A stretch of DNA of 12,636 nt from a virus. The notes under the pieces are model-generated. The model searched no databases. It was not told the DNA's origin and worked only from the letters and a program-made list of their open reading frames with translations. Numbering within the stretch: position 1 is the first letter of the stretch; each line of letters starts with the position of its first letter. Positions 1 through 12,636 of the stretch are shown piece by piece. Both the position numbers and the translations under genes were made by a program. The stretch is from IMG/VR virus record IMGVR_UViG_3300045988_158908, one strand, 5' to 3'.

Positions 1-52
1 AAACTAGGCATGACAGTTCGTTCTGACAATTCATGCAAATTCCCCAACTTGT

Positions 53-138
53 CAGACAATTAGACAAATTGTGTGAAATTAGAAACAATTCTGACAATTA
101 GACAAATTGTGTGAAAATTAGAAACAATTCAGACAATT
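53..138. repeat. Tandem direct repeat (38/39-bp unit, about 2.2 copies) inside the left ITR, built from GACAATT / GACAAATT / GAAACAATT iterons
   Basis: Unit 53-90 is CAGACAATTAGACAAATTGTGTGAAATTAGAAACAATT. Unit 91-129 is CTGACAATTAGACAAATTGTGTGAAAATTAGAAACAATT (1 substitution, 1 extra A). A third partial unit, CAGACAATT, lies at 130-138. Exact GACAATT occurs at 25-31, 55-61, 93-99 and 132-138. The array is bracketed by inverted GTCAGACA copies (51-58, and reverse complement at 146-153). Confidence 0.9.
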
Positions 139-178
139 TATCAATCTGTCTGACTTTAATACTTTGTTATAAAAACCG

Positions 179-207
179 TTGACTTTTATATGTAAAACTG
201 CTATTAT
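179..207 (+). promoter_or_regulatory. Sigma-A/sigma-70-type promoter inside the left ITR, reading inward
   Basis: TTGACT (179-184), a 17-nt spacer, then TATTAT (202-207), with an A/T-rich tract upstream. AAGGAG (238-243) and ATG 252 follow downstream. Confidence 0.6.
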
Positions 208-251
208 GAGGTTGTAACAATCAAATAGCAAAATGTAAAGGAGAAAAAATC

Positions 252-710
252 ATGTTTGAATTACAATCTTGTAAAATCACTAGGAGAGAAAAAAGAGGTG
301 ATGCAAGCAATATGTTTACTGTACATATTGCATATTATGAAGCAACTTGTGTTGATGAAAATAAAGAAGAGTACGTTTATTCGAGTGAACTTATTTATGT
401 TAATAAAGTTCCAACATTATTTGATTGCTTAAATGATGCAATTAGCGCATTTTATAATAAAGATGAGTTAATCCCTACTCATAAGAAACGTATAACATTT
501 ATTGAAATTTGCAGTATGATGGGTTCTAAAAAATATTTAGACCTGTATTTAAACGGTACTTTATATAAAAGGCGTTTATACTTGTATGATTTAAATTGTG
601 TTTATTCATACTTGAAAAGAAATGGGTTGTTTGTTTATGATGTAACACAATCACTCACAGTACCAAGTGAGTATAATTTATTAGTAGAAAAGGAGAGAAA
701 AACATGTTAA
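252..710 (+). CDS. Hypothetical early protein (152 aa), no recognisable family
   Basis: First ORF after the ITR promoter. AAGGAG RBS lies 8 nt upstream of the ATG. Its stop overlaps the next start (ATGTTAA, 704-710). I recognise no motif. Confidence 0.6.
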   Translation: MFELQSCKITRREKRGDASNMFTVHIAYYEATCVDENKEEYVYSSELIYVNKVPTLFDCLNDAISAFYNKDELIPTHKKRITFIEICSMMGSKKYLDLYLNGTLYKRRLYLYDLNCVYSYLKRNGLFVYDVTQSLTVPSEYNLLVEKERKTC

Positions 711-1000
711 AATCATCTACAAAAATTACCTGCCGTCCTTATGATGGAAACAGTAAAACAAAAGCTTTTATTGAATTATGTCTCGATAAAACGCTTGTCA
801 TTAAAGGCTTGACGCTTGTAGAGGGTTCACAAGGGTTATTTCTTTCTTTTCCATCATCAAAGGGAAAAGATGGGAAATACCATAACTCAATTTACTCAGT
901 GGATAAGGAGTTTACAGGCCAGTTAGAAGAAGCTTGTATTAAAAAATACAACGAAGCATTTAATAAATCTGATAACTCAGATGAAGCACATTTTTCATAA
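704..1000 (+). CDS. spoVG: SpoVG-family nucleic-acid-binding protein homolog (98 aa)
   Basis: The segment KAFIELCLDKTLVIKGLTLVEGSQGLFLSFPSSKGKDGKYHNSIYSVDKEFTGQLEEACIKKY aligns by eye with B. subtilis SpoVG [63 protein letters not shown]. Shared elements are the GLF..PS....DG core and a similar length. GGAGAG RBS upstream, translationally coupled to the previous ORF. Confidence 0.75.
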   Translation: MLKSSTKITCRPYDGNSKTKAFIELCLDKTLVIKGLTLVEGSQGLFLSFPSSKGKDGKYHNSIYSVDKEFTGQLEEACIKKYNEAFNKSDNSDEAHFS

Positions 1001-1007
1001 AACTTAT

Positions 1008-1038
1008 AAGGTGTACTATTTAGTACACCTTTTTTTTT
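1008..1038 (+). terminator. Rho-independent terminator after the SpoVG-like gene
   Basis: AAGGTGTACT (1008-1017), loop ATTT, AGTACACCTT (1022-1031), giving a 10-bp perfect stem. A run of 7 T follows (1032-1038). Confidence 0.8.
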
Positions 1039-1054
1039 CAGTAAAGGAGATTAA

Positions 1055-2110
1055 ATGAATATATATGATAAAAACGGATGGTTAGACATTCCAAAAATCG
1101 TAAATACTTGTGAAAAAAACGAGATAAATTTTATCTTCATTATCGGTGCTCGTCGTACCGGAAAAACATATGGGATCTTTAAACATTTCATTGAGGATGT
1201 TTTTTCAAAGGATGAAAAAGTAATATATATGAGAAGAAAAACAACTCAAATAGATTCCGTGTTAGTTGATACTATGAATCCTTGGATTGACATTAATCAT
1301 GATCTTCATAGGAATTTCTATTTTAAAAAGCTAAAAGGGGAAAAAAGCCGGGTATCATTGCAAGAAATCAACGAAGCTGGAGAGGAGATTTATCATGGTG
1401 AAGCTTTTAGTCTTACTAGTTTAATGAATAATCGAGGATTCTCAGGATCCGGCTTTTCAGAAGGAATCTATGATGAATTTATTCCTGAGAAGCTTGACAA
1501 AAGAATTAAAGGTGAAGAGGATGCGTTTCTGAATGGAGTAGAAACTATTTCTGCCAACCGTGAGTTACTTGGTGCAAAGCCTTTTCGTTGGTGGATTGTT
1601 TCAAATAGTAACACTCTTGACTCTCCGCTTATTCATTCTTTTGGGTTGCTTTCAAACTTAGAAAAAATGAAGAAGATCGGACAGGAGTTTTCCATGTTAA
1701 AAGATCGTGGAATAATCATTATTTTGATTAACAAAAGCCCCATTTCAGAAAAGAAAAGAAAGACAGCTCTTTATAAGGCTCTTACCGGAAGTACAGATTT
1801 TGAAAAAATGGCTCTCGACAATGAATTTGCATATGATGACACGAGTTCTATAAAGTCAGAAGATTTGAGAAAATATAGATTGATATGCATAGTTGGCTCA
1901 CTTGGGATTTATGAACACAAAAATGAAGCTAAACTTTACATAAGCGATCATATTTCCGGAACGTGCAAAGATAGCTTTCCTGACAGTGAGTTAGGGAAAT
2001 CTCAGTTTAAGTTTTATTATTCATGGGTATATAACTATATTATTAGTAATAGAATTTCTTATCAGAATCTGACTGTAAAATTTTATCTTGATAAAATTTT
2101 CAATATATGA
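1055..2110 (+). CDS. DNA encapsidation (packaging) ATPase, phi29 gp16-like
   Basis: Walker A FIIGARRTGKTYG matches phi29 gp16 FVIGARGIGKSYA. VIYMRRKT matches FIYVRRYK. Walker B GIYDEFIPEK matches IVFDEFIREK. VSNSNT matches LSNA, and FEKMALDNEFAY matches GEMSLDNQF. Length is 351 aa versus 332 aa for gp16. AAGGAG RBS. Confidence 0.9.
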   Translation: MNIYDKNGWLDIPKIVNTCEKNEINFIFIIGARRTGKTYGIFKHFIEDVFSKDEKVIYMRRKTTQIDSVLVDTMNPWIDINHDLHRNFYFKKLKGEKSRVSLQEINEAGEEIYHGEAFSLTSLMNNRGFSGSGFSEGIYDEFIPEKLDKRIKGEEDAFLNGVETISANRELLGAKPFRWWIVSNSNTLDSPLIHSFGLLSNLEKMKKIGQEFSMLKDRGIIIILINKSPISEKKRKTALYKALTGSTDFEKMALDNEFAYDDTSSIKSEDLRKYRLICIVGSLGIYEHKNEAKLYISDHISGTCKDSFPDSELGKSQFKFYYSWVYNYIISNRISYQNLTVKFYLDKIFNI

Positions 2111-2121
2111 TATATATAAAT

Positions 2122-2220
2122 TAAGGGAAAACGGCTACATCAACCGTCGGAAACGGATGCTATAATGGGATGATTACCCGTAAGTTTTCCCTTATTATTT
2201 TATTCATTAGTATCCGTTTC
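2122..2220 (+). ncRNA. Candidate structured RNA (possible packaging pRNA analog, or a terminator/leader element)
   Basis: The 139-bp non-coding gap is the largest in the genome. An 11-bp outer helix pairs TAAGGGAAAAC (2122-2132) with GTTTTCCCTTA (2184-2194). It encloses two small hairpins, CCGT/ACGG (2144-2147/2153-2156) and ATGGG/CCCGT (2165-2169/2177-2181), so it resembles a three-way junction. A further 9-bp complementarity pairs GAAACGGAT (2150-2158) with ATCCGTTTC (2212-2220). The function is inferred, not shown. Confidence 0.25.
2158..2166 (+). promoter_or_regulatory. Possible extended -10 promoter element (TGnTATAAT) upstream of the structural genes
   Basis: TGCTATAAT at 2158-2166. 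No good -35 hexamer (about 2138-2143 reads CATCAA). It lies inside the structured region, so the two interpretations compete. Confidence 0.3.
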
Positions 2221-2249
2221 TTTTCTCAAGAAAGGAGAAAAAACAAAAA

Positions 2250-2537
<288 letters not shown>

Positions 2538-2555
2538 AAAGGAAGTGTATTAAAT

Positions 2556-3752
2556 TTGGCTGTAAATAGTTTAACTCCGCAGGATGCCTATATTCTTATC
2601 AGTTCCATTGCGAAACAGGCTACAGGTCGTTCTGACCTTGTAGCGACTGACACAAGTTCTTTTGTTTCCGTTGGGGGAACACTGTTACGTACAGGAGTAG
2701 AAAACACACTGAAAAGTATGTCTACAGTATTTGCGGAAACGTATTTTGCAAACGAGTCTTATACTGGTAAATTAAGGACAGTCGAACAGACAAATGTTCG
2801 TTGGGGTGCTATCGTCAGAGAGATTACTTCCCTGTCAATGGATGCAGAACAGTCTGATGATTGGAACACAGAGCAGAATCCAAACACTTTGGATGATGGC
2901 AAGTCTATTGACATGTATAAGATTCACAAGCCGAAAGTGCTTGAACTCAAGTTCTACGGAACAAAGTTGTTACAGAGATCAATCACAAGATTCCGTGACC
3001 AGCTGGCACTTGCTTTTTCTAGTGAGGATGAATTTCTCAGATTTTACGAAGCTGTTATGATTGAGTTTCGTAATGATCTTGAGATGGATCGTGAGAGTGA
3101 ACGTCGTGCAACCATGCTTAACTATATGGCAGGCTTATCATCTCTTGGTATGGAAGTTGACCTTGCACATGAGTTTAATACAAAGAATGGAACACAGTAC
3201 ACAAGAAAGCAGTTACTTTCCGAGCACCGTGATAAGTTTATGCCGTTCGTCGTTGCCAGAATCAAACTTGACTCTGAAAAGATGACAGAGAGATCAAATA
3301 AGTACAGATTTACTATTACAGGCTTTGAAGACCTTTTGAGATTCACACGGAAAGAAAATCAGCGACTTATGATGCTGTCAAGTTTTTGGATCGATTCTGA
3401 AACACAGACGTTACCGTATGTGTTTGATGATAAAAATTTACAGATCGAGAACAAAGAACTTGTAAACTGGTGGCAGTCCGCTGATAATGAATCAGCTATC
3501 CAGATTACTCCAGCCATCATTGGAGCAGATGGACATGCAAAACAGGCAGAAACAGAGGTCAACTTACCTTATGTTCTGGGGGTTCTGTATGACCGTCGTG
3601 CTATGGGGATCAACTGGCAGTTTGATTACAGTTCGACAACACCATTCAACAGCCGAGGTGGCTACTATAACATGTTTGTACATTCCAGAAAAAACTACTG
3701 GAATAATTTTACGCATAACGGAATCTTGTATGTGATCGGGGAGGGGGCATAA
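2556..3752 (+). CDS. Major capsid protein (phi29 gp8-like, HK97 fold inferred), TTG start
   Basis: 398 aa, placed after the scaffold-like gene. C-terminal NSRGGYYNMFVHSR resembles phi29 gp8 NPRGLYWNYYYHVW. N-terminal ATDTSSFVSVGGTLL..VENTL resembles gp8 ATANNVAEVGAGIL..VQNDF. The only in-frame start after the upstream TAG (2535-2537) is TTG 2556, with GAAAGGAAG upstream. Confidence 0.75.
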   Translation: MAVNSLTPQDAYILISSIAKQATGRSDLVATDTSSFVSVGGTLLRTGVENTLKSMSTVFAETYFANESYTGKLRTVEQTNVRWGAIVREITSLSMDAEQSDDWNTEQNPNTLDDGKSIDMYKIHKPKVLELKFYGTKLLQRSITRFRDQLALAFSSEDEFLRFYEAVMIEFRNDLEMDRESERRATMLNYMAGLSSLGMEVDLAHEFNTKNGTQYTRKQLLSEHRDKFMPFVVARIKLDSEKMTERSNKYRFTITGFEDLLRFTRKENQRLMMLSSFWIDSETQTLPYVFDDKNLQIENKELVNWWQSADNESAIQITPAIIGADGHAKQAETEVNLPYVLGVLYDRRAMGINWQFDYSSTTPFNSRGGYYNMFVHSRKNYWNNFTHNGILYVIGEGA

Positions 3753-3753
3753 T

Positions 3754-4071
3754 ATGTTAGCCGCATTATTAACTATTCCTTCCGGTGGTTCTATAGTTGT
3801 AAAATTTCCATTTAAAAAAAAAATAGGTATAAGAAGATTAATAGTATCTTCTCCTCATAATGATATTACATTAAATTATGACGGAATCCCAATTATTAAC
3901 TTTAACAGTTCCAACGGATTAGTTGAATTGAATTTTGAAAGCTATTATGGATTTCCGGACTCGTCTTTATTTTCAATGATTAATAACGGAACTACTTCTG
4001 TACAAGCGACAGTGCTTGTCGATTATGTCCCAGATGCACCTATAAATAGTGATTATTTTGAGAGGAGTTAG
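3754..4071 (+). CDS. Hypothetical protein (105 aa); sits where phi29 has the head fiber gene gp8.5
   Basis: GGAGGGG RBS 7 nt upstream of the ATG, tightly packed between the capsid and holin genes. The sequence appears beta-rich. No motif recognised. Contains an A10 run at 3814-3823. Confidence 0.55.
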   Translation: MLAALLTIPSGGSIVVKFPFKKKIGIRRLIVSSPHNDITLNYDGIPIINFNSSNGLVELNFESYYGFPDSSLFSMINNGTTSVQATVLVDYVPDAPINSDYFERS

Positions 4072-4073
4072 CA

Positions 4074-4298
4074 ATGATGGACACATTTTTAACTATCTTA
4101 GGAAACTATGCGTTTCCGATCGTATGCTGTTGTGTCATGGCATACTTTGTGAAGTACATGTACGACCAGACCAACGCACGAGTTGACAAACTCAATGAAG
4201 AGCATAAAGATGAAGTTGACACACTTTCAGAAGTCATCAAAAACAACACGCTTGCTATTGAAAAAATGAACTCGTTAATCGAACACTTAGGAAAGTAG
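4074..4298 (+). CDS. Putative holin (single N-terminal TM segment plus coiled C-terminus, BhlA/UviB-like architecture)
   Basis: 74 aa. Hydrophobic segment FLTILGNYAFPIVCCCVMAYFV, then a charged helical tail (DKLNEEHKDEVDTLSEVIKNN..IEKMNSLIEHL). Lies immediately upstream of the endolysin. GAGGAG RBS. Confidence 0.6.
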   Translation: MMDTFLTILGNYAFPIVCCCVMAYFVKYMYDQTNARVDKLNEEHKDEVDTLSEVIKNNTLAIEKMNSLIEHLGK

Positions 4299-4305
4299 GT
4301 ATAAC

Positions 4306-4956
4306 ATGACAGCTAATGAACTTGTTGAAAACGCAAAGGAATTACTTGGTGTAAAATATGTGTGGGGTGGTAATACCCCACAGTCAGGGCTTGATTGCTC
4401 CGGATTGCTTTACTATATTCAGAAGAAAGCAGGTTCAGAGGTGGGAGATATGACAGCTTCTGGCTATTCAAAACTTGGAACAAAGATTCCGATTGGGCAA
4501 CAAAAAGTAGGTGACTTTCTCTTTTTTGGATATCCAGTCAATCATTGTGCCATTTTTATTGGTAACGGCTATATGATCGAGAGTAGAGGCAGTAGAAAAA
4601 ACACTGCTGACAACCCCGGAGTTGGGGTAGTCAAAAGCCTTGTCACTCGCAGATATGACTTATCTTGCATCCGCAGGGTATGGGATGAAAAAACCCCATC
4701 TTATGAAATAGGTAGAACCTATACTACTATCGTGGATCACTTACATGTACGTTACAGTGTGTGGGGTCAGATCAAAAAGTATGCACAGCTGACAAGGGAT
4801 GGTATGAAACACGCTTATTCTGATGGGTGCCTGAAAAAAGGAACAACGGTAACGATAAAAGAAGTAAAAAAGGATGAAGCTGGAGCAACGTGGGTTAGGA
4901 TTCCATCTGGTTGGATTTGTGCCATTACTTCAAAAGGGGAGATATACGTATCATGA
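4306..4956 (+). CDS. Endolysin: NlpC/P60 peptidoglycan endopeptidase with a C-terminal SH3b-like cell-wall-binding domain
   Basis: GVKYVWGGNTPQSGLDCSGLLYY carries the catalytic Cys motif. GDFLFFG...NHCAIFIGNGYMIES carries the catalytic His region. The C-terminal roughly 80 aa (GTTVTIKEVKKDEAGATWVRIPSGWICA) looks SH3-like. Confidence 0.85.
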   Translation: MTANELVENAKELLGVKYVWGGNTPQSGLDCSGLLYYIQKKAGSEVGDMTASGYSKLGTKIPIGQQKVGDFLFFGYPVNHCAIFIGNGYMIESRGSRKNTADNPGVGVVKSLVTRRYDLSCIRRVWDEKTPSYEIGRTYTTIVDHLHVRYSVWGQIKKYAQLTRDGMKHAYSDGCLKKGTTVTIKEVKKDEAGATWVRIPSGWICAITSKGEIYVS

Positions 4957-6299
4957 CAGAAATAGTTTTGTATCATTTTTCGAAAAGAAAAAATTCTACA
5001 AAACGTCCTACAGGGCAGGGGACAGAAGTTCCCTGCCTTTTAAAATCTGCAACTACATTTCAAGATCCTACGTTTATTTTGCAAAGACCAATGAATGACA
5101 TGCTACAATTTAACTATGCAAAGTGGGCAGATCATTATTATTTTATTGATTCAACTACTTCAATCAATGCGGGACAAACTGAAATTAGTTGTACTGAGGA
5201 TGTTTTGGCAACTTATAAAAATGAAATCGGTAATTATACCTGTTTCATTGAAAGATCAAGCAATCAGACTACACTTGCCAACGACACTATGTATATTCCT
5301 ACAAATGACTGGGTCTTATCAACAAGAAATGTAAGTCATAAAGAGAAAATAATGACAAGCACTTATTCACAGCAATATATTATAAGGGTAGTTTCGAGGA
5401 CTGGCGTAGCATCCTACTATATAAACGGCGATCAATTAAGCAATTTGCTTGACTATATGTACACAGAATCAAATTTTGCTGACGTTATAACGGATGCCAT
5501 TACCAAGCTAATGTTTGACCCATTTAAATATATAGTTGACTTGAAATGGATTCCTTTTGTTGAAAGTGCTTTTAAAAATAACAATAATGAAGCAATACAG
5601 CTAGGATTCTGGGATAGTGGTGTGATGGCAAAAAGAATTGATGAAAACACGGTTGTTAATTTTTCGTATTCATTTGCTTTTGATAATCCACTTTATGCTA
5701 TCACTGATTTTAGGTACTATAATCCGTCGTTTTCAAACTATTTTATAAAGCTTCCTTTTATCGGAGTAGTTGCTCTTAATCCCTATAAAATAGATGATAG
5801 TGTAAATGCACTTTATCAATTTGACGCAACAAGTGGATTATGCAATGTATTTTTGCAATCAAAGAAAGTTGTTTTTGCATCTTATCAATTCCAGTTGTCA
5901 GTTCCAGTACAAATCGGTTATGCAACCACAAACATAGCACAACTGACCACCTCAGCTGTAAGTCTTGTTGGTGCCGGATTGCAAGGAAACATTGCACAGG
6001 GTATATCTTCAGGAATAGAAGCAGGAAGAAGCATTACAGCACCTGAAGTATCAATGCTTGGAACGATTGGCAACATTTCAAACATACTCAATAACCAGAT
6101 TTTAGAGTTTAATTCATATGCCTGTACAAGCATAGATCCTGATGGTGCAAGTGAGGGATATGCAGATGGTACTGTTCGTTATATTTCTGGCTTGAGTGGA
6201 TATATAAAATGCAGAAATGCATCCATAGAAATTAGTGGATTTACCGGAGATCAAGAAGCAGTGAATAACTACTTGAATAGTGGTTTTTATTATGAATAA
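4953..6299 (+). CDS. Tail knob / distal tube protein (phi29 gp9-like), 448 aa
   Basis: Start moved to ATG 4953 (GGGGAG RBS at 4936-4941, ATGA overlap with the lysin stop) rather than the ORF-track ATG 4911. NYAKWADHYYFIDSTTSINAGQTEISCTEDVLATYKNEIGNYTCFIERS resembles gp9 [51 protein letters not shown]. A Gly/Ala/Ser-rich segment (GAGLQGNIAQGISSGIEAG) parallels the gp9 GGGISAGASAAGG loop. C-terminal ISGFTGDQEAVNNYLNSG resembles ISGDINNNDLQEIRTIFDNG. Confidence 0.7.
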   Translation: MTEIVLYHFSKRKNSTKRPTGQGTEVPCLLKSATTFQDPTFILQRPMNDMLQFNYAKWADHYYFIDSTTSINAGQTEISCTEDVLATYKNEIGNYTCFIERSSNQTTLANDTMYIPTNDWVLSTRNVSHKEKIMTSTYSQQYIIRVVSRTGVASYYINGDQLSNLLDYMYTESNFADVITDAITKLMFDPFKYIVDLKWIPFVESAFKNNNNEAIQLGFWDSGVMAKRIDENTVVNFSYSFAFDNPLYAITDFRYYNPSFSNYFIKLPFIGVVALNPYKIDDSVNALYQFDATSGLCNVFLQSKKVVFASYQFQLSVPVQIGYATTNIAQLTTSAVSLVGAGLQGNIAQGISSGIEAGRSITAPEVSMLGTIGNISNILNNQILEFNSYACTSIDPDGASEGYADGTVRYISGLSGYIKCRNASIEISGFTGDQEAVNNYLNSGFYYE

Positions 6300-6315
6300 T
6301 GTTTCACGTGAAACA
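6300..6315. promoter_or_regulatory. 16-bp perfect palindrome TGTTTCACGTGAAACA immediately after the tail knob stop codon
   Basis: TAA (6297-6299) followed directly by TGTTTCACGTGAAACA. A near-identical copy follows the stop of the appendage gene (9193-9209). Confidence 0.5.
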
Positions 6316-6333
6316 TAGAAAGAGGTAAAAAAT

Positions 6334-7260
6334 ATGTGGACTCCAATTGGTTTTGATAAAATCAATATCATTTCAAATTACTTCCAACCGTCAGGAATCA
6401 AGGCAGACAGTCTATATACTGACACGTTTGACCGTATGCTGTATGAGAGAGTTTGTTCTATTTTAGATATAACATATAATGCAAATTTTGACATTGACTA
6501 TTTTAAGTTTTGTCTGCTTGGTGGGGGATTTATTGCGATCACATATACTGATGCATATGGACTGATCGCTCAGTATCCTTCGATCAGTGGATATGATATG
6601 TATTGCAAGCCAACGACTGCAAGCATTAACACATGTGCCACCAATGCAAACATAAGCTTACAGGATTTAAAGATTGGTACAGATTGTAGTGTGATCTATT
6701 TACGTCCGTCAAGATGCGGAATTTTTGACATTATCGGTTATTATAGTTATAAACTGGCTCTGGTAGCTTCTGCTTTTGACATGAACGTATTCAACAGCAA
6801 GTTAGCTTTTATGATAGCTGCCAAAAACAAATCCGCTGCAAAAACACTGGAAAAAATCTATGACGAAGTGCAAGCAGGTAATCCCGCAGTTGCGTATGAT
6901 GCTTCAATCAAAGAGAATGAGAACGCAAACATGAGGGGGAAAAGTTCAGATCCTTTTGAGTTTTTCAATAAAGATTTGAAAAACAACTTTATTTCAAAAG
7001 AGTTAATTGATGTTTTTGAAAAACTTCTTGACCAGTTTGACACAGAAGTCGGAATTCCGTCTGTCGGTTCTGATAAAAAAGAGCGTTTAAATGTTATGGA
7101 AACTGAAAAAAACGACATAGAATCTGTGACACGACTTACTACATGGCTAGAAACAATGCAGACAGGGGTTGACATGGCAAACAGTCTTTATCCTAGTTTA
7201 AATCTGAACATAAAGATCAGAGACTATAAAAAGGCAGGTGTAACAAATGGGTATGTATAA
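6334..7260 (+). CDS. Head-tail connector / portal (upper collar), phi29 gp10-like
   Basis: 308 aa versus 309 aa for gp10. KKERLNVMETEKNDIESVTRLTTWLETMQTGVDMANSLYPSLNLNIKIR aligns with gp10 [48 protein letters not shown]. AGAGG RBS. Confidence 0.85.
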   Translation: MWTPIGFDKINIISNYFQPSGIKADSLYTDTFDRMLYERVCSILDITYNANFDIDYFKFCLLGGGFIAITYTDAYGLIAQYPSISGYDMYCKPTTASINTCATNANISLQDLKIGTDCSVIYLRPSRCGIFDIIGYYSYKLALVASAFDMNVFNSKLAFMIAAKNKSAAKTLEKIYDEVQAGNPAVAYDASIKENENANMRGKSSDPFEFFNKDLKNNFISKELIDVFEKLLDQFDTEVGIPSVGSDKKERLNVMETEKNDIESVTRLTTWLETMQTGVDMANSLYPSLNLNIKIRDYKKAGVTNGYV

Positions 7261-7933
7261 AATTACAATAGCCGGACTTTATGAATATGATCAAACATTA
7301 TTTGATAACATGACTTTTCCGGCAGAAGCTGACAAACAGAACTTTATTGACAGTTTACTTTTAAGCTATGGGGATTGCGAACCACTCTATCCGGATAGTG
7401 ATTTTATGAAACACTCAGCTATTCCGGCATGGTCGAAAAAATGGCAGGATTCAATTGAACGTGTTTTCCTTGCATTAAAGAAAGAATATAACCCAATCGA
7501 GAACTATGACAGACAGGAGACTTGGACGGATTCGCCTGACATTGAACGAAACACTGTAACAGGTGGTAAAGACAAAAACACATTACAGGCAGGCAGAGGT
7601 TCCGTTACGTCAAACACAGGATCCAACACTATGGAAGAAAAAGTAAGTGCTTTTGATTCAAGTAGTTATCAGCCATCAAAGGAAGATACAACAACTTACG
7701 GAAATAGTACAAAAATGGAAACATCCGGGCAGGATGTAAACGACATTGAATATGGGCGAACTGAAAAAAATACGGAAAAAGGGACTACAACTCACACTGG
7801 ACAGATTCACGGAAACATAGGCGTGACTACTTCACAACAAATGTTAGAATCGGAACTCCAACTGAGAAAGCAATCATTTATAGATTATTGCACAGGATTA
7901 TTTGCAAATGACTTACTGATTCTTGTTTATTAA
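7247..7933 (+). CDS. Putative lower collar / tail adaptor protein (synteny with phi29 gp11)
   Basis: 228 aa, overlapping the connector gene by 14 nt. Its position between connector and appendage genes equals that of phi29 gene 11. No motif I can name with confidence. Confidence 0.45.
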   Translation: MGMYKITIAGLYEYDQTLFDNMTFPAEADKQNFIDSLLLSYGDCEPLYPDSDFMKHSAIPAWSKKWQDSIERVFLALKKEYNPIENYDRQETWTDSPDIERNTVTGGKDKNTLQAGRGSVTSNTGSNTMEEKVSAFDSSSYQPSKEDTTTYGNSTKMETSGQDVNDIEYGRTEKNTEKGTTTHTGQIHGNIGVTTSQQMLESELQLRKQSFIDYCTGLFANDLLILVY

Positions 7934-7947
7934 GAAAGGAGAGAAAA

Positions 7948-9192
7948 ATGATTAATACGTACCCTCACAGCTCCACACAGGACATGAACTTAGACTACCT
8001 CTTAAAAGTGGCAAAGCATGCAGAAGAGGATCACAAAGAATGGTCAGACATAAAAGGGACTGCACAAAAGCAGATTGATGATGCAATTAAAGCGTCACTA
8101 GAATCCGGAGAGATTGGAAAAGTAGTTGATGATGCAACGAAAAAAATCTTGACGGATGAAATTGAACCATTAAAGAACACAGTAACCGAACAAGGCAAAC
8201 TGATTTCTAATCTCGAAAAAAGAGACGGTTTATTTGATTTAAGCGGTAGAACTATCATTATCGGAGACAGCTACACAGTAGGCTATACTCCGGAAGGAAA
8301 TATAACTCCTTGGACAGAACACTTTTTGGATTACTGTTCTATAGACAATGTAACTATTAAAAGCAATGGTGGTGCTTCTTTTTCAACGTCTAATAACTCA
8401 TTTCTTATGCTTTTAAATCAGATTGACGCTGATCCATCTGTAAAGCAGATCTTAGTAGTTGGGGGTTATAATGAGTTCGGTTTTTATTCAGAAATTGAAA
8501 ATGCGATCAACGCTTTCTATGGAGTAGCGCAAACACGTTTTCCAAACGCTAAAATTTTTGTAGCAATGGTTGCATGGTCAGCGGACAGCACACAATGGAA
8601 CAGATTCAAGATTGCAAAAAGTGCGTATAACACACAGCGGAAAAATTGGAACTATCTTAATGGAAGCGAATATATTTTACACGCTGACGGATTCATGGGG
8701 TCGGACGGTTTTCATCCAAACACGACCGGACAGGAACGACTCGCTACATACCTTGCGGAAGCAGTAAAAACCGGGTCTTGTCATCCATCCTTTTATGATG
8801 TGACTGCAAACTTTGAAGCAGGAGACTTTACAGCAACTCCGGGGTCTAGTTGGGTGTTCGTTACAGAGTACAACGAAAATAATAGTAATATCATCTGGAG
8901 TGATTATGTTTGTTTTCCAAACAGCGGTGAACTTGTTTGTAATGGTACAGAATACTATCTAGGTCGCATCTATTCTACCAGTTTTATTGGAGATGGAAAC
9001 GGTTATACATGCTACCCTACTAGTGTGATTGTAAAATCTGGATCCGATTTTTATCACATTCCGGCACAGTTGAATTTCCGAGCGAGACAGATTTATCTTG
9101 CTCTGTATGACATTAGTGATGACAAGCATAACTACAGAACGCTTACAACCGTAACACAGGTACAAATTCACAGAGGATCCATTACAATGTAA
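7948..9192 (+). CDS. Tail appendage / receptor-binding protein with a central SGNH (GDSL) hydrolase domain
   Basis: SGNH blocks are present: I TIIIGDSYTVGY, II SNGGASF, III LVVGGYNEF, V GSDGFHPNTTGQERLA. The N-terminal roughly 90 aa is charged and helical, and the C-terminal roughly 140 aa is a distinct domain. It is the last structural gene, in the phi29 gene 12 position. AAAGGAG RBS. Confidence 0.75.
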   Translation: MINTYPHSSTQDMNLDYLLKVAKHAEEDHKEWSDIKGTAQKQIDDAIKASLESGEIGKVVDDATKKILTDEIEPLKNTVTEQGKLISNLEKRDGLFDLSGRTIIIGDSYTVGYTPEGNITPWTEHFLDYCSIDNVTIKSNGGASFSTSNNSFLMLLNQIDADPSVKQILVVGGYNEFGFYSEIENAINAFYGVAQTRFPNAKIFVAMVAWSADSTQWNRFKIAKSAYNTQRKNWNYLNGSEYILHADGFMGSDGFHPNTTGQERLATYLAEAVKTGSCHPSFYDVTANFEAGDFTATPGSSWVFVTEYNENNSNIIWSDYVCFPNSGELVCNGTEYYLGRIYSTSFIGDGNGYTCYPTSVIVKSGSDFYHIPAQLNFRARQIYLALYDISDDKHNYRTLTTVTQVQIHRGSITM

Positions 9193-9209
9193 TGTTTTCA
9201 CGTGAAACA
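9193..9209. promoter_or_regulatory. Second copy of the TGTTT(T)CACGTGAAACA palindrome, immediately after the appendage gene stop codon
   Basis: TAA (9190-9192) followed by TGTTTTCACGTGAAACA, with one extra T relative to 6300-6315. Confidence 0.5.
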
Positions 9210-9246
9210 AAAAATAAAGGGATGCAAATTTGCATCCCTTTATTTT
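9209..9246. terminator. Bidirectional rho-independent terminator where the two arms converge
   Basis: Perfect palindrome ATAAAGGGATGCAAATTTGCATCCCTTTAT. The stem pairs AAAGGGATGCA (9216-9226) with TGCATCCCTTT (9231-9241). An A-run lies 5' (9209-9214) and a T-run 3' (9243-9246). It sits between the + strand stop (9192) and the polymerase stop (9245-9247). Confidence 0.85.
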
Positions 9247-11371
9247 AACTATATAAAACATCTTTTGTCTCAAACGGCAACGGCAACCCTGTTTCCTTAT
9301 CATACGGAATGGTGTGATCCAATTCATACTCCGTATCGGATAAACGGATTGCACATCCATACTCTATTCTGCATCCATCAACAGTTATATTGTTAATTCC
9401 TTTGCTATAGAGGTATTCCGTTTTAAGTTTCCAACTTGGGTCTTTTTTCCAGTCGTTTGCACGGCGGTAGTTTCTACGATAAGTGAGACTATTTCTATAG
9501 ATGAATCCTTTTTCAAAGTTATTTATATTGTCATCAAGACAGTACACTCCGTCTTTTGGAACTCCTGCAACGGTCTGTTTTAGCTTTCCCTTTTCACGGT
9601 AACAGTAACGCTTGCTACCCATAGTTTTAAATTCGCTATAAATACCGTCAAACTCAGCAATTCCTAGCGTGTGTGATTCTCCATCAAAGAGTACCGTTCC
9701 AAGTCCTCGTTGCTCTGATTTTTTCATGATTTTTTCATTATACTCAACAAGTTTTTTCCTATCCCATTCCGTGCCTTTAACGGAATCGGTGTCAGAATAA
9801 AACCATATTTTGCAACACTTCCCAAGTTCAAATAACTCAGACTGGGCATAGGCTGTAATCCATACTCCCCATTGATAAGGTAAAAAAGAATTTCTACTTT
9901 TGTAATACTTTTGTAACTTTTCATCATATTCAGATTCACATAAAACATCAGTCCATAACCCTGTTTCATAATCTTCTTCAAACATGGATTGGATCATCTT
10001 TTGAACCATCATGCCATAGATTCCATTAAGTTCCCCTTTTGAAATCATATAAAGCACCGGGTCTGCATGTTTCAATGTGTTCTTATGTTCGAAAAGTTCT
10101 ATCACATACTTAATAATCCAATCTGGCAAGTAGTCTTTCTTTGCACGTATGACGTTTGCAACGTCAGCCCATTCAAAGTCATAGGCTTCAAATATGACCT
10201 GCAAATCCGGATCCGTAAACGGATAGATTACAAGATCTGCATTAACGATTTTACCATTATCAAGATTCAACTCCATAGCTTTCTTTTTACTTATCTTATC
10301 TGCATCTGGAAACGTGCAAACTTTTGCTTTGTGAAAAGCAAGAGGTGGCATTGGATGCCCTTTTTTCAAGCGTAGCTTTTTCAAGCGTATATAGCCGGCA
10401 AAAGCATAATGCTCTTTAAGATCCATGATTTCCTGCAACGATAACTTTGTAGAAACAAAGTTTGTCATAGGAAACTTTTCATATACGATTCTAGCCGGAT
10501 AAGAACTTGTAAAATCGTAGCACTCCACCGGTTCCGAAATTAACTGATTGACATAGTAGCGGTTCGCATGAGTATAGCCACCGTGATAGCAGGATGCGAG
10601 CAACTCGTACTGATCTAAACTAAGTCGCATTGACATAAATTTCTTATGCCATTTCTTGTCTTTTCGTGATCTTGATCTTGCTTGGTTACGGATAAAGCCT
10701 GTATTTGTCAATGGGGCAGTAGCAACAGTTACGTTTCTTTGCGATAAATAGAGCCGTAAAGCTTTACACAAGCAGATAGTATCAACACAAACATAAGCTA
10801 ATTCCTTTACAGTACGCCCAGATTCAGGGGTTCTTTTCTTTTTATAGTCCCACGTACCAGTAGCTTTCTCAAGCGTCCCCATGTCCTTACAGAGACGTTC
10901 AAGAGTACGTTGTGTAAGGATAGCACTATCACGGATTTCAATGCCGAAAGATTGCCATTGCATAAATACGTATCTGTGAGTTTTAACAGCTAATTTTCGA
11001 TCCGGAACGCCAAACTTCTCTAATAGATGATTGCGCAGAAACATATAGTCATACGATAGGTTATGTATATAAAATCTCACTGTATGTTCTTTATCAGCAT
11101 GAAGCGTGTCACAAATCCGGTCAATCGTATTGATAAGATCACGTACATGATTACCGTACAAACAGCTATCATTTTCTATAGTTATAGTCCAATCAGTTAT
11201 CCATCCAATGTCTTCATTATCAGACACATAGGTCTCAGTGTCTACAGTTATGATTTTTTCATAAAAAGACTGATAATGTCCTGCATTACTTTTTCGTATG
11301 AAATTACCGTCAAAAAGACGCATGTAATCGTAGTCTTTAAATGATACAATTGGATATCCTGCTATAACCAT
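9245..11371 (-). CDS. Protein-primed family B DNA polymerase
   Basis: Exo I ITVDTETY, Exo II YIHNLSYDYMFL, Exo III YVCVDTICL. Motif A YDFTSSYPA (phi29 DVNSLYPA), motif B KGELNGIYGM (phi29 KLMLNSLYG), motif C FYSDTDSV (phi29 YCDTDS), and KxY as GSKRYCY. 708 aa. Confidence 0.95.
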   Translation of the reverse strand: MVIAGYPIVSFKDYDYMRLFDGNFIRKSNAGHYQSFYEKIITVDTETYVSDNEDIGWITDWTITIENDSCLYGNHVRDLINTIDRICDTLHADKEHTVRFYIHNLSYDYMFLRNHLLEKFGVPDRKLAVKTHRYVFMQWQSFGIEIRDSAILTQRTLERLCKDMGTLEKATGTWDYKKKRTPESGRTVKELAYVCVDTICLCKALRLYLSQRNVTVATAPLTNTGFIRNQARSRSRKDKKWHKKFMSMRLSLDQYELLASCYHGGYTHANRYYVNQLISEPVECYDFTSSYPARIVYEKFPMTNFVSTKLSLQEIMDLKEHYAFAGYIRLKKLRLKKGHPMPPLAFHKAKVCTFPDADKISKKKAMELNLDNGKIVNADLVIYPFTDPDLQVIFEAYDFEWADVANVIRAKKDYLPDWIIKYVIELFEHKNTLKHADPVLYMISKGELNGIYGMMVQKMIQSMFEEDYETGLWTDVLCESEYDEKLQKYYKSRNSFLPYQWGVWITAYAQSELFELGKCCKIWFYSDTDSVKGTEWDRKKLVEYNEKIMKKSEQRGLGTVLFDGESHTLGIAEFDGIYSEFKTMGSKRYCYREKGKLKQTVAGVPKDGVYCLDDNINNFEKGFIYRNSLTYRRNYRRANDWKKDPSWKLKTEYLYSKGINNITVDGCRIEYGCAIRLSDTEYELDHTIPYDKETGLPLPFETKDVLYS

Positions 11372-11382
11372 TTTTTTTTTTT

Positions 11383-12030
11383 TTACCTCTTGTATTTATA
11401 TTTCAGTGCTTCTGCTTCTCCGGAGAAACCTAGCTCTTTTGCTACGTCATCCGCTCTATCTATGTCCGTGCGGTCTCTGAACTCTTCTAATTTGCTAATT
11501 ATTTCATTCATTGTATCACCGTCTCGCAAAGCTTTTCCAACGAACTCTACAGCCTGTTCAGAAGAATATAACAGACTTATAAGTTCAAAAGCATATGACT
11601 GAAAAAATGCACTCATCTCGCTTGTATCTTTGAATTCAAGACCATATTCAGACAACTTCTCACGTCTCTTTTTTATGATGGATTTCCATCCGGGAACCGT
11701 AGAACTTTTTTCTTTTAAGACATTCTGCATCATTTGTACCTGCTTACGCATGGAAGAAATCTGCATATAAAGGACGTTACGATCACTGTAATCCAACTTT
11801 ATTTTTTCTCTTATTCTTTTATTATACCCGAACTTTTTTAGAAATGCATTGTAATCAGCGTAAGCACCACCGGATTCAGAAGTGAATCCTGCTCTCTCTA
11901 AACGAACCATACGCTGATTTAGACGTTTAGCCAAACTTGTATAAAGTCTGGCTAATTCTTTTTCATTAAGTTTATATGGGTTTATATCCTGCCCCTTGGT
12001 TGTGATTCTTTCTGCTCCCTTTAAAGCCAT
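11383..12030 (-). CDS. Putative terminal protein (TP), the primer for DNA replication
   Basis: 215 aa, directly upstream of and coupled to the polymerase gene (phi29 gene 3 / gene 2 arrangement). It has a basic N-terminal region and an acidic C-terminal part. The loose resemblance NEKELARLYTSLAKRLNQRMVRLERAG versus phi29 TP DKAEYARLVKNTKAKIARTKKKYG is suggestive only. AGGAG RBS. Confidence 0.55.
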   Translation of the reverse strand: MALKGAERITTKGQDINPYKLNEKELARLYTSLAKRLNQRMVRLERAGFTSESGGAYADYNAFLKKFGYNKRIREKIKLDYSDRNVLYMQISSMRKQVQMMQNVLKEKSSTVPGWKSIIKKRREKLSEYGLEFKDTSEMSAFFQSYAFELISLLYSSEQAVEFVGKALRDGDTMNEIISKLEEFRDRTDIDRADDVAKELGFSGEAEALKYKYKR

Positions 12031-12032
12031 TG

Positions 12033-12263
12033 CTACTCCTTTCTAAATCTTGGGGCGATCCAATCATCACACTGGTCAAAAGTTCCGTCCGGATAAACTT
12101 CAATACCTTTTACCCATTTAAGAAACATTGTAGGACGTTTATAGCCGGACACTTTGAACTCATTCCAGAGACCGTTGTAATCCATAAACTCGGTGACTGC
12201 ATCTGCTTTTTTCTTTGCGTAGTATTTATAAATTGCGTTAAATTGTGTTTTACTTCTTTTCAT
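12033..12263 (-). CDS. Hypothetical basic early protein (76 aa)
   Basis: AAGGTGA RBS, tightly packed upstream of the TP gene, Lys/Arg-rich N-terminus (MKRSKTQFNAIYKYYAKKKAD). No family recognised. Confidence 0.6.
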   Translation of the reverse strand: MKRSKTQFNAIYKYYAKKKADAVTEFMDYNGLWNEFKVSGYKRPTMFLKWVKGIEVYPDGTFDQCDDWIAPRFRKE

Positions 12264-12289
12264 TGTATGTTCTCACCTTTCCTAATTTT

Positions 12290-12388
12290 TTATACTTCTA
12301 CCAAGAGTTTATTTAATAGTTTCTCAAGATCACGACTTAATTGTTTAAGGTTCATTGTACGTTTACTATAGTACTGGTTCTGCTTCAT
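12290..12388 (-). CDS. Small unannotated ORF (32 aa: MKQNQYYSKRTMNLKQLSRDLEKLLNKLLVEV), first gene of the right arm
   Basis: Hand-translated. ATG at 12388-12386 (minus strand) is preceded by AAGGAG with an 8-nt spacer, about 25 nt downstream of the predicted ITR promoter start site. Stop TAA at 12292-12290. It fills the otherwise empty gap between the promoter and the 76-aa gene, and it falls below the ORF-track length cutoff. Confidence 0.4.
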   Translation of the reverse strand: MKQNQYYSKRTMNLKQLSRDLEKLLNKLLVEV

Positions 12389-12429
12389 CTTTCTATCTCC
12401 TTAATGACTGTATTGATTGTTACAACCTC

Positions 12430-12458
12430 ATAATAGCAGTTTTACATATAAAAGTCAA
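12430..12458 (-). promoter_or_regulatory. Identical promoter inside the right ITR, reading inward on the minus strand
   Basis: Reverse complement of 179-207 (AGTCAA at 12453-12458, ATAATA at 12430-12435). On the minus strand it is followed by AAGGAG and the ATG at 12388. Confidence 0.6.
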
Positions 12459-12498
12459 CGGTTTTTATAACAAAGTATTAAAGTCAGACAGATTGATA

Positions 12499-12584
12499 AA
12501 TTGTCTGAATTGTTTCTAATTTTCACACAATTTGTCTAATTGTCAGAATTGTTTCTAATTTCACACAATTTGTCTAATTGTCTG
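12499..12584. repeat. Mirror copy of the ITR-internal tandem iteron array (right ITR)
   Basis: Reverse complement of 53-138, which follows from the perfect ITR identity. Confidence 0.9.
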
Positions 12585-12636
12585 ACAAGTTGGGGAATTT
12601 GCATGAATTGTCAGAACGAACTGTCATGCCTAGTTT

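Follow-up and report, generated by a model that had tools for sequence, protein, structure and literature searches.

A small phi29-like phage genome from the human gut with 224-bp inverted terminal repeats and a conserved three-way-junction RNA ahead of its head genes

The stretch of virus DNA analyzed here, IMG/VR record IMGVR_UViG_3300045988_158908 (12,636 nucleotides [nt], taken at its full length and called the window below), raises two questions: whether it is a complete genome of a phi29-like phage, ends included, and what may be the role of a conserved RNA element lying between its packaging ATPase gene and its scaffold-like gene. The first can be answered with high confidence. The window is very probably the complete linear double-stranded DNA genome of an uncultured lytic phi29-like podophage of the human gut, whose host is probably a member of the Bacillota and which belongs to a very common, heavily sampled and formally unclassified clade of 12 to 13 kb. 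For its part, the RNA element has a well-defined predicted structure, and two functions for it are weighed below.

Genome ends and completeness

The window is bounded by inverted terminal repeats (ITRs):

1-224, plus strand: left ITR, with a terminal AAA, about 60 nt of conserved outer sequence, RACAATT repeats and a sigma-70-like promoter directed inward
12413-12636, minus strand: right ITR, mirroring the left one, with its promoter at 12458-12430

Both arms were 224 nt long and 100% complementary, as computed and then recomputed, and the perfect 224-bp ITRs claimed in the original prediction were thus confirmed. The terminal base of the window, which opens AAACTAGGCATG..., was common to four independently assembled close relatives. 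The IMG/VR relatives L013, L015, L025 and L028 (91 to 95% identity in the family B DNA polymerase, PolB) terminated precisely at AAACTAGGCATGACAG, with the same last base as the window, and L012 and L006 ended 4 to 5 nt short of it. Among the 26 IMG/VR contigs retrieved in a PolB-based scan, none ran beyond the window terminus AAACTAGG. One refuting condition named with the original prediction, namely, that sequence continues past the ends, was not borne out in these related assemblies, which stop at or short of the last base. A putative terminal protein of 215 amino acids (aa; see below) had 461 related clusters at 90% identity, one of them with 814 member sequences, and the longest carrying contig was no longer than 13.3 kb for every listed cluster or member of the 215-aa, PolB and capsid protein families. 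Since the ends of the relatives coincide, none of them extends farther and the family contigs stay within 13.3 kb, the window was taken as a full-length linear genome.

Of the 13 RACAATT sites in the window, 12 were located inside the two ITRs (25-139 and 12498-12612), all in the same orientation relative to the end. They sit in tandem units of 38 or 39 nt whose copy number differs among relatives, unlike the outer 60 nt or so and the ITR promoter, both of which were conserved. These repeats are probably bound by a DNA-binding protein of the phage, which may act at the origin or at the early promoter. The ITR promoter itself (TTGACT-17-TATTAT with a TG extension, 179-207, directed inward) was the best promoter-like site of the window by consensus match. 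L013 carried a long run of CAGACAATT.

Relative L024 (13,053 bp) differed in the outermost 44 nt or so of both ITR copies (1-44 and 13010-13053), which read AAATCTATCACAGAAG...; this divergent outer stretch meets the common ITR sequence at TGACAATTCATGC, and the AAA start was kept. The replacement in both copies suggests that the extreme termini are exchangeable while remaining inverted repeats. The length of the window carries an uncertainty of about 30 nt at an internal CAGAAC repeat, because L032, with an identical PolB, calls a scaffold-like protein of 105 aa compared with the 95 aa found here.

Two alternatives to a complete and autonomous genome were considered. The perfect ITRs and the ends might be assembly artifacts, the true genome being longer, circularly permuted or bounded by shorter repeats. 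The window is indeed a metagenome assembly, related contigs often break within repeats, the ITR repeat copy number and the CAGAAC repeat length vary between assemblies, and some cultured relatives (AD70P3 and K58) were deposited as permuted records lacking ITRs. Nevertheless, at least five independent assemblies stop at one identical base, L012 and L024 independently carry ITRs of 186 to 214 nt, and the AAA-starting terminus agrees with phi29-type ends, 5'-AAAGTA (PMC11476376), which together make an artifact highly improbable. The other alternative is a phage that is not autonomous and needs a helper phage tail or some other helper function, as does the distantly related Acinetobacter phage Phanie (11.9 kb), which was reported to be infectious only when bound to the tail of a helper myophage (PMC11476376). 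The window has a minimal gene set, and its receptor-binding protein is without a confident identification. Phanie and astrithr, however, have a tail knob split over two genes and, according to the same review, no tail-fiber or tail-spike genes (PMC11476376), whereas the window encodes a single 448-aa tail knob, a lower collar and a 414-aa SGNH tail-position protein; in addition, the records of the related Amedibacillus phages of 12.2 to 12.3 kb describe isolates in culture and name the host strain. Helper dependence is thus improbable as well. The complete, self-sufficient linear phi29-like podophage genome of the original prediction was sustained by the shared terminal base and by the hallmark gene families.

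A three-way-junction RNA ahead of the head genes

In the gap of 139 nt between the ATPase and scaffold-like genes and at the end of the ATPase gene, the following elements were predicted:

2088-2116, plus strand: sigma-70-like promoter with a TG extension, TTGATA-17-TATATA, separated from the RNA by about 6 nt
2122-2194, plus strand: three-way-junction RNA of about 73 nt with covarying stems, followed by a U-rich tract at 2195-2204
2122-2132 with 2184-2194, plus strand: stem P1, 11 bp, joining the 5' and 3' ends
2133-2135 with 2159-2161, plus strand: stem P2a, 3 bp
2136-2143, plus strand: 5' bulge of 8 nt in P2
2144-2147 with 2153-2156, plus strand: stem P2b, 4 bp, with the loop CGGAA
2167-2169 with 2177-2179, plus strand: stem P3, with the 7-nt loop AUGAUUA

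This segment was almost invariant even in the GenBank relative MT836115, where the flanking genes are only 64 to 66% identical to those of the window. Among 17 distinct sequences, 98.9% of the stem cells were paired and 10 pairs had changed on both sides; these pairing values were reached by none of 500 shuffles, while slid controls were about 40% paired. The wobble (G.U) pairs all fit the plus strand only. P2a (16-18 with 42-44), a covarying stem without any broken pair, took the place of the pairs 17-64 and 24-42 of a first alifold model.

A further pairing was predicted between the bulge and the P3 loop. In the window, AUCA in the bulge (2139-2142) is complementary to UGAU in the loop (2171-2174), and almost all lineages showed such complementarity through sequences of their own, giving 10 or more distinct bulge/loop pairs (for example, AUCA/UGAU, GCUAU/AUAGC, UGCAC/GUGCA, GGACA/UGUCC, GAACA/UGUUC, UGUGC/GCACA, AGUCA/UGACU, GAUCA/UGAUC and UAUCC/GGAUA). 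Over 26 distinct combinations, the longest Watson-Crick run averaged 4.15, compared with 2.82 for shuffled loops (maximum of 3.35 in 2,000 shuffles) and 2.55 for cross-lineage pairings.

The element proved to be widespread. A covariance model built exclusively from window-type and MT836115-type sequences detected more distant versions in the lineages of MT835998 and MT836263, as well as in eight others from IMG/VR (E values from 3e-12 to 8e-3), and a descriptor search rendered 43 distinct versions in 79 loci. The element was located in MT836115.1 (L001; 5303-5378), L058 (1045-1125), L060 (7942-8021, minus strand) and L002 (6296-6367, minus strand). The same arrangement was observed in L058, L060, L002 and most other lineages, with the promoter ending about 6 to 7 nt before P1 and the first head gene following the RNA. 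A relaxed descriptor search located the element in the cultured Amedibacillus phage AD70P3. The relaxed matches in astrithr, Phanie, HM2, Cp-1, MT835901 and MT836155 were treated as spurious because they fell in coding or AT-rich sequence. Two other candidates were discarded: TGCTATAAT, within the RNA, as a late promoter, since sister lineages preserve the structure without its -10 box, and the right-end leader (12264-12412) as a site for a packaging RNA (pRNA), since it holds a 32-aa open reading frame (ORF) with a strong ribosome-binding site (RBS).

The layout of the window RNA is that of the phi29 pRNA (RF00044): in both, the 5' and 3' ends are paired, there is a three-way junction, and one helix carries on its 5' side a large bulge whose pairing partner is the loop of the hairpin that comes next. 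The structure line of RF00044 gives, in order, the A helix, the C helix with a 9-nt 5' bulge, the E hairpin and the D hairpin. The pRNA ring on the prohead is built by intermolecular pairing of the bulge (CE loop) with the D loop (PMC5066667). The phi29 pRNA differs from the window RNA in its length of 118 to 174 nt, in its place close to one end of the genome and in having an early promoter of its own. No Rfam family matched the window RNA, and the RF00044 model, which scores 145 bits on phi29 itself, gave no match at an E value of ≤10 in the window or of ≤1 in five diverse loci. Reports of pRNAs are confined to phi29 and related Bacillus phages (PMC5066667, PMC11476376, PMC12670572), including 12 more recovered by a 2025 search seeded with the phi29, GA1 and DLc1 pRNAs (PMC12670572). 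No prior report of the RNA described here was found in the literature searched, which does not prove that it is undescribed.

Against this background, the RNA at 2122-2194 might, as a tentative reading of the comparative analysis, be a miniature packaging RNA of about 73 to 80 nt, kept across many gut phi29-like lineages of 11 to 14.5 kb, including AD70P3. Its layout, the covarying bulge-loop pairing, the consensus-like promoter, the U-rich tract present in several lineages and the gp16-type motor encoded alongside it are points in favor of a pRNA-like role. Somewhat more plausible, while still short of probable, is that the RNA acts in cis as the 5' leader of the head-gene mRNA, for example as an attenuator, a stabilizer, a site for protein binding or a compact aptamer, with an intramolecular bulge-loop pairing and no trans-acting pRNA. 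In accordance with a leader, the RNA always lies directly upstream of the first head gene and in the same orientation, even in L058, where the ATPase gene is elsewhere; in several lineages (L126 to L133 and L141) an RBS follows 3 to 8 nt after P1 and the U tract is missing; and the lengths of P2a and P3 roughly match (3/3, 5/4, 4/5 and 6/4), which suits side-by-side docking in one molecule, as in compact aptamers. Less in keeping with it are the consensus-like promoter, which would be unusual for a regulated late promoter; the U-rich tract after P1 in the window, MT836115, MT835998 and AD70P3 lineages, which could release a discrete RNA; the overall layout, which is that of the pRNA; and the alternative (antiterminator) pairing, of which none was seen. 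On this rough apportionment, the two functions leave a remainder for something else.

A packaging RNA would be the first pRNA outside the Bacillus-infecting Salasmaviridae and would imply that RNA-dependent motors are widespread among gp16-type phages, with a much smaller natural ring-forming scaffold. A cis-acting leader would still constitute a new and widespread class of structured RNA heading the head-gene operon of abundant human-gut phages. The question can be tested, since the element is also present in a cultured phage-host pair (Amedibacillus phage AD70P2/P3).

Gene content, layout and proposed life cycle

Sixteen ORFs and no tRNA were found in the window. Gene assignments were supported by Pfam, PHROG and NCBIfam matches and by comparison of local family profiles with phi29 and Cp-1 proteins; the matches to PF05894, PF25622 and PF05352 were all above the thresholds of these families. 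Together with the predicted terminators, the genes were as follows:

252-710, plus strand: early ORF, 152 aa, restricted to the closest relatives; without matches in Pfam, PHROG or NCBIfam
704-1000, plus strand: SpoVG-family protein, 98 aa (PF04026, 3.4e-17, above the cut-off; NF009749, 4.6e-15)
1008-1031, plus strand: terminator-like hairpin with a trailing T run, separating the SpoVG gene from the ATPase gene
1055-2110, plus strand: gp16-type DNA packaging ATPase, 351 aa (PF05894, 5.5e-16; phrog_2150, 6.7e-33; family profile against phi29 gp16, 7e-46)
2250-2537, plus strand: scaffold-like protein, 95 aa, with the position and size of phi29 gp7; no homology detected by Pfam, PHROG or profile comparisons
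2556-3752, plus strand: major capsid protein (MCP), 398 aa (PF25622 Phi29_MCP, 5e-12; family profile against phi29 gp8, 3.9e-28)
3754-4071, plus strand: ORF of 105 aa in the gp8.5 position, conserved in MT836115; no family match by Pfam, PHROG, NCBIfam or profiles
4074-4298, plus strand: putative holin, 74 aa, with one transmembrane segment (phrog_4898, weak, 7e-4)
4306-4956, plus strand: endolysin, an NlpC/P60 endopeptidase (PF00877, 1.5e-17) followed by about 100 C-terminal aa without assignment; 86% identical in MT836115
4953-6299, plus strand: tail knob-like protein, 448 aa (phrog_2248 "tail protein," weak, 6e-4)
6334-7260, plus strand: connector (upper collar), 308 aa (PF05352, 6.9e-12; phrog_2038, 5.5e-19; profile against phi29 gp10, 2e-42)
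7247-7933, plus strand: lower collar, 228 aa (family profile against phi29 gp11, 5.6e-10), with a homologue in AD70P3
7948-9192, plus strand: protein in the tail/appendage position with an SGNH/GDSL hydrolase domain, 414 aa (PF13472, 2e-6, below the curated cut-off; phrog_31573, 6.8e-29)
9211-9246, no strand: predicted bidirectional terminator, a perfect 36-nt palindrome with T runs on both strands, where the convergent units meet
9245-11371, minus strand: protein-primed-type PolB, 708 aa (PF03175, 4e-11; phrog_1907, 7e-52)
11383-12030, minus strand: putative terminal protein, 215 aa, with a homologue directly upstream of PolB in relatives
12033-12263, minus strand: early ORF, 76 aa, without family assignment in Pfam, PHROG or NCBIfam
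12290-12388, minus strand: ORF of 32 aa with a strong RBS, first gene of the right-end operon, also called in L033 and L034

The gene set of the original prediction was therefore well supported for PolB, the gp16-type ATPase, the capsid protein, the connector, the lower collar and the lysin and less so for the terminal protein, the tail knob, the scaffold and the holin. As for the proposed late-gene order 7-8-(8.5)-9-10-11-12, the sub-orders matched those of phi29, while the ATPase gene was found before the scaffold gene and the holin and lysin genes lay between those for the capsid and the tail knob.

PolB matched PF03175 with 42.9 bits (cut-off, 25.8), and its family profile matched phi29 gp2 (7e-23) and the Cp-1 polymerase (6e-21). 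The translation showed the motifs Exo I (DTE), Exo II (NLSYD), Exo III (YVCVD), Pol A (DFTSSYP), B (KGELNGIYG), C (YSDTDS) and KxY (KRY). A phmmer search of PolB against the PDB gave no match, and profiles were required instead.

Directly upstream of the polymerase gene, homologues of the 215-aa protein (ORFs of about 200 aa) were found in all 10 diverse relatives examined (MT836115, MT835901, MT835998, MT836155, MT836263, Clostridium phage HM2, AD70P3, astrithr, Phanie and K58), and the counterpart in the astrithr group was taken as the terminal protein in a recent review (PMC11476376). The name of putative terminal protein was given because of this conserved position and of transitive homology. 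The family has the invariant motifs N-x-R-x-x-R-L and S-T-x-x-G. The latter, present as K-S-S-T-V-P-G (residues 108 to 114; S/T-T-x-x-G), was invariant across very divergent homologues, lies between two helices in a low-confidence model and is a candidate for holding the priming serine or threonine, which may be S110 or T111.

Among the early genes, that of the SpoVG-family protein is the second from the left end and was also present in MT836115 and MT835901 and absent from the other relatives examined. The PHROG family matching it carries no functional annotation; the product could be a nucleic-acid-binding early protein, a candidate for the DNA- or RNA-binding regulator of the phage. In the scaffold-like gene, the repeat (CAGAAC)12.8 at 2322-2398 encodes a (QN)n run and is variable in length, and many related contigs break exactly at this repeat. 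Small homologues of the holin-like protein occurred in AD70P3, astrithr, Phanie and K58.

In astrithr and Phanie the tail knob is split, and its two halves, which have been related to phi29 p9 (PMC11476376), both fall in the family of the 448-aa tail knob-like protein; the best phi29 match of the 448-aa protein itself was gp9, a weak one (hhalign probability, 11%). Nucleotide similarity to most relatives, otherwise 84 to 93% identical, stopped within this gene at about 5260 and resumed at about 6144. Because similarity breaks there in most relatives, the central part of the tail knob (5260-6143) was regarded as a swapped or hypervariable cassette, and this variable segment may possibly be a host-range determinant.

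Identical promoters at both ends of the window point into two convergent gene blocks that meet at the palindromic terminator (9211-9246). The right unit would comprise the 32-aa ORF, the 76-aa ORF and the terminal protein and polymerase genes, and the left one would comprise the 152-aa ORF and the genes for the SpoVG-like protein and the gp16-type ATPase. The internal promoter (2088-2116) would start a transcript headed by the three-way-junction RNA and continuing through the scaffold, capsid, holin, NlpC/P60 lysin, tail knob, connector, lower collar and SGNH tail-protein genes. By analogy with phi29-like phages, the terminal protein and the family B polymerase would prime replication at both ends, where the 3'-TTT ends would permit sliding-back, and elongation would proceed by strand displacement. 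Each 224-bp ITR, with the anatomy described above, would then serve as origin, repeat array and site of one inward promoter, and unit-length protein-capped DNA would be packaged by the gp16-type ATPase through the connector.

Several results weigh against parts of this interpretation. The promoter and terminator calls are consensus matches, from which activity is inferred. The 215-aa protein had no similarity to phi29 p3 or to the Cp-1 terminal protein (hhalign probability, <1%), phmmer against the PDB gave nothing meaningful, and an AlphaFold2 model from a 42-sequence alignment, all-helical, had a pLDDT (predicted local distance difference test) of 42, too poor to be used; its identity as the terminal protein thus stays putative, based on position and on homology to equally uncharacterized proteins. 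In MT836115, the closest GenBank relative, the replication genes lie on the strand of the structural genes. Concerning the host, no PolB relatives were found in 185,579 GTDB genomes, and an endolysin scan rendered generic NlpC/P60 matches only, at 34 to 44% identity and scattered over unrelated phyla.

The orientation found in MT836115 indicates that gene arrangement varies within the clade. In MT836115 (743-3500), MT835901, MT836155, astrithr and Phanie, the module of terminal protein and PolB genes occupies the left end and shares the strand of the structural genes; in the lineage of the window (9245-12030), it occupies the right end and the opposite strand. Since this placement differs between otherwise syntenic genomes, both with ITRs, the module has been inverted or moved.

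Relatives and comparison with known systems

A megablast search against 50,697 phage records gave one partial match, to MT836115, an unclassified record that was 80.5% identical over 10% of the query. No classified phage in this set matched at the nucleotide level, and none reached the identity of at least 70% used for a genus or of 95% used for a species. The nearest classified phages showed about 30% PolB identity, and the nearest named ones, Amedibacillus AD70P2/P3, showed about 32%. By these comparisons, the genome falls in no classified genus, and to this extent the original prediction holds.

The claim of an unusually small genome, in a range where few tailed phages would fall below 13 kb, was not supported. 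Cultured relatives of 10.4 to 12.3 kb, at about 30% PolB identity, are known (Vibrio K58 g2; Salmonella astrithr, Astrid and assan; Pectobacterium DU_PP_III; Acinetobacter Phanie; and Amedibacillus AD70P2/P3), GenBank holds many fecal relatives of 12 to 15 kb, including MT836115 at 67% PolB identity, and a 2024 review counted more than 2,000 phi29-like entries in the databases, grouped by capsid into about 30 clusters, many of the entries being of 11 to 15 kb and many genomes of 12 to 15 kb coming from human metagenomes (PMC11476376). In IMG/VR, at least 26 contigs grouping with the window at species or genus level had 91 to 95% PolB identity and covered 88 to 99% of the window at 84 to 93% nucleotide identity; none of those listed had a PolB more than 95% identical to that of the window. 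The exact PolB and capsid proteins were already public, in 90%-identity clusters of 1,065 and 1,254 sequences, and the proteins of the window were present in NCBI, JGI, ENA and Logan on a 12,636-bp contig, the exact PolB occurring on human gut metagenome contigs of PRJEB7369. As many relatives of similar size are public, neither the small size nor the 16 genes said to be near the minimum for a tailed phage can be held as a novelty. The genome itself adds little, being one more member of a well-sampled, still unnamed clade of small gut phi29-like phages, and is mainly useful as a clean end-to-end reference with intact ITRs.

Among the closest genomes, L012 (IMGVR_UViG_3300045988_163533, 12,673 bp) aligned over 99% of the window with 91% nucleotide identity and ended 5 nt short of its terminal sequence. 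Most gut contigs of the same cluster differed from the window in a swapped central portion of the tail-knob gene. MT836115.1 ("Bacteriophage sp.," 12,876 bp, from human feces, Mexico) encodes nearly all the genes of the window (identities of 67% for PolB, 61% for the MCP, 86% for the lysin and 95% for the holin); its ITRs measure about 150 nt, and the RNA element is present. Unlike the window, it carries the terminal protein and PolB genes at its left end, oriented as its structural genes.

The cultured phages AD70P2 and AD70P3 (12.3 and 12.2 kb, placed under Guelinviridae in GenBank) are similar to the window in size and core gene set. They encode homologues of PolB, the terminal-protein-position gene product, the ATPase, the MCP, the tail knob, the connector, the lower collar and the small holin-like protein, and they have the same promoter-plus-RNA element ahead of the scaffold-like gene. 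On the other hand, protein identities are 26 to 37%, SpoVG, the SGNH protein and any homologue of the NlpC/P60 lysin are missing, the G+C content is 26.7% (PMC11476376) compared with about 36% in the window, and the deposited records are without ITRs. Astrithrvirus and its allies (astrithr, DU_PP_III, Phanie and K58 g2; 10.4 to 11.9 kb) have phi29-like genomes as small as the window or smaller and share with it homologous PolB, terminal-protein-position gene, ATPase, MCP and connector. Unlike the window, they have Gram-negative hosts, a knob split in two genes and all genes codirectional, and the RNA element was not detected in them.

Phage phi29 (19.3 kb) shares with the window the hallmark genes, the AAA terminus and the sub-orders scaffold-capsid and knob-connector-collar-appendage. 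Its ITR is 6 bp long compared with 224 bp in the window; its early and late genes are transcribed in opposite directions, outward from a central region, whereas those of the window form convergent units; and its ATPase gene comes last and its lysis genes follow the tail genes, the window differing in both respects.

Streptococcus phage Cp-1 (Salasmaviridae), with 19.3 kb, exceeds the window by 7 kb and is distant from it, with profile-level matches to the polymerase, ATPase, MCP and connector, and the RNA element was not detected in it. Like the window, it is linear and has a long ITR (236 bp) with promoter elements; its terminal protein gene, like the putative one of the window, lies directly upstream of the polymerase gene, both transcribed inward from the end. 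The precedent that the original prediction had seen in Cp-1 for such long ITRs stands, and the layout of the window is not that of phi29 and is closer to that of Cp-1.

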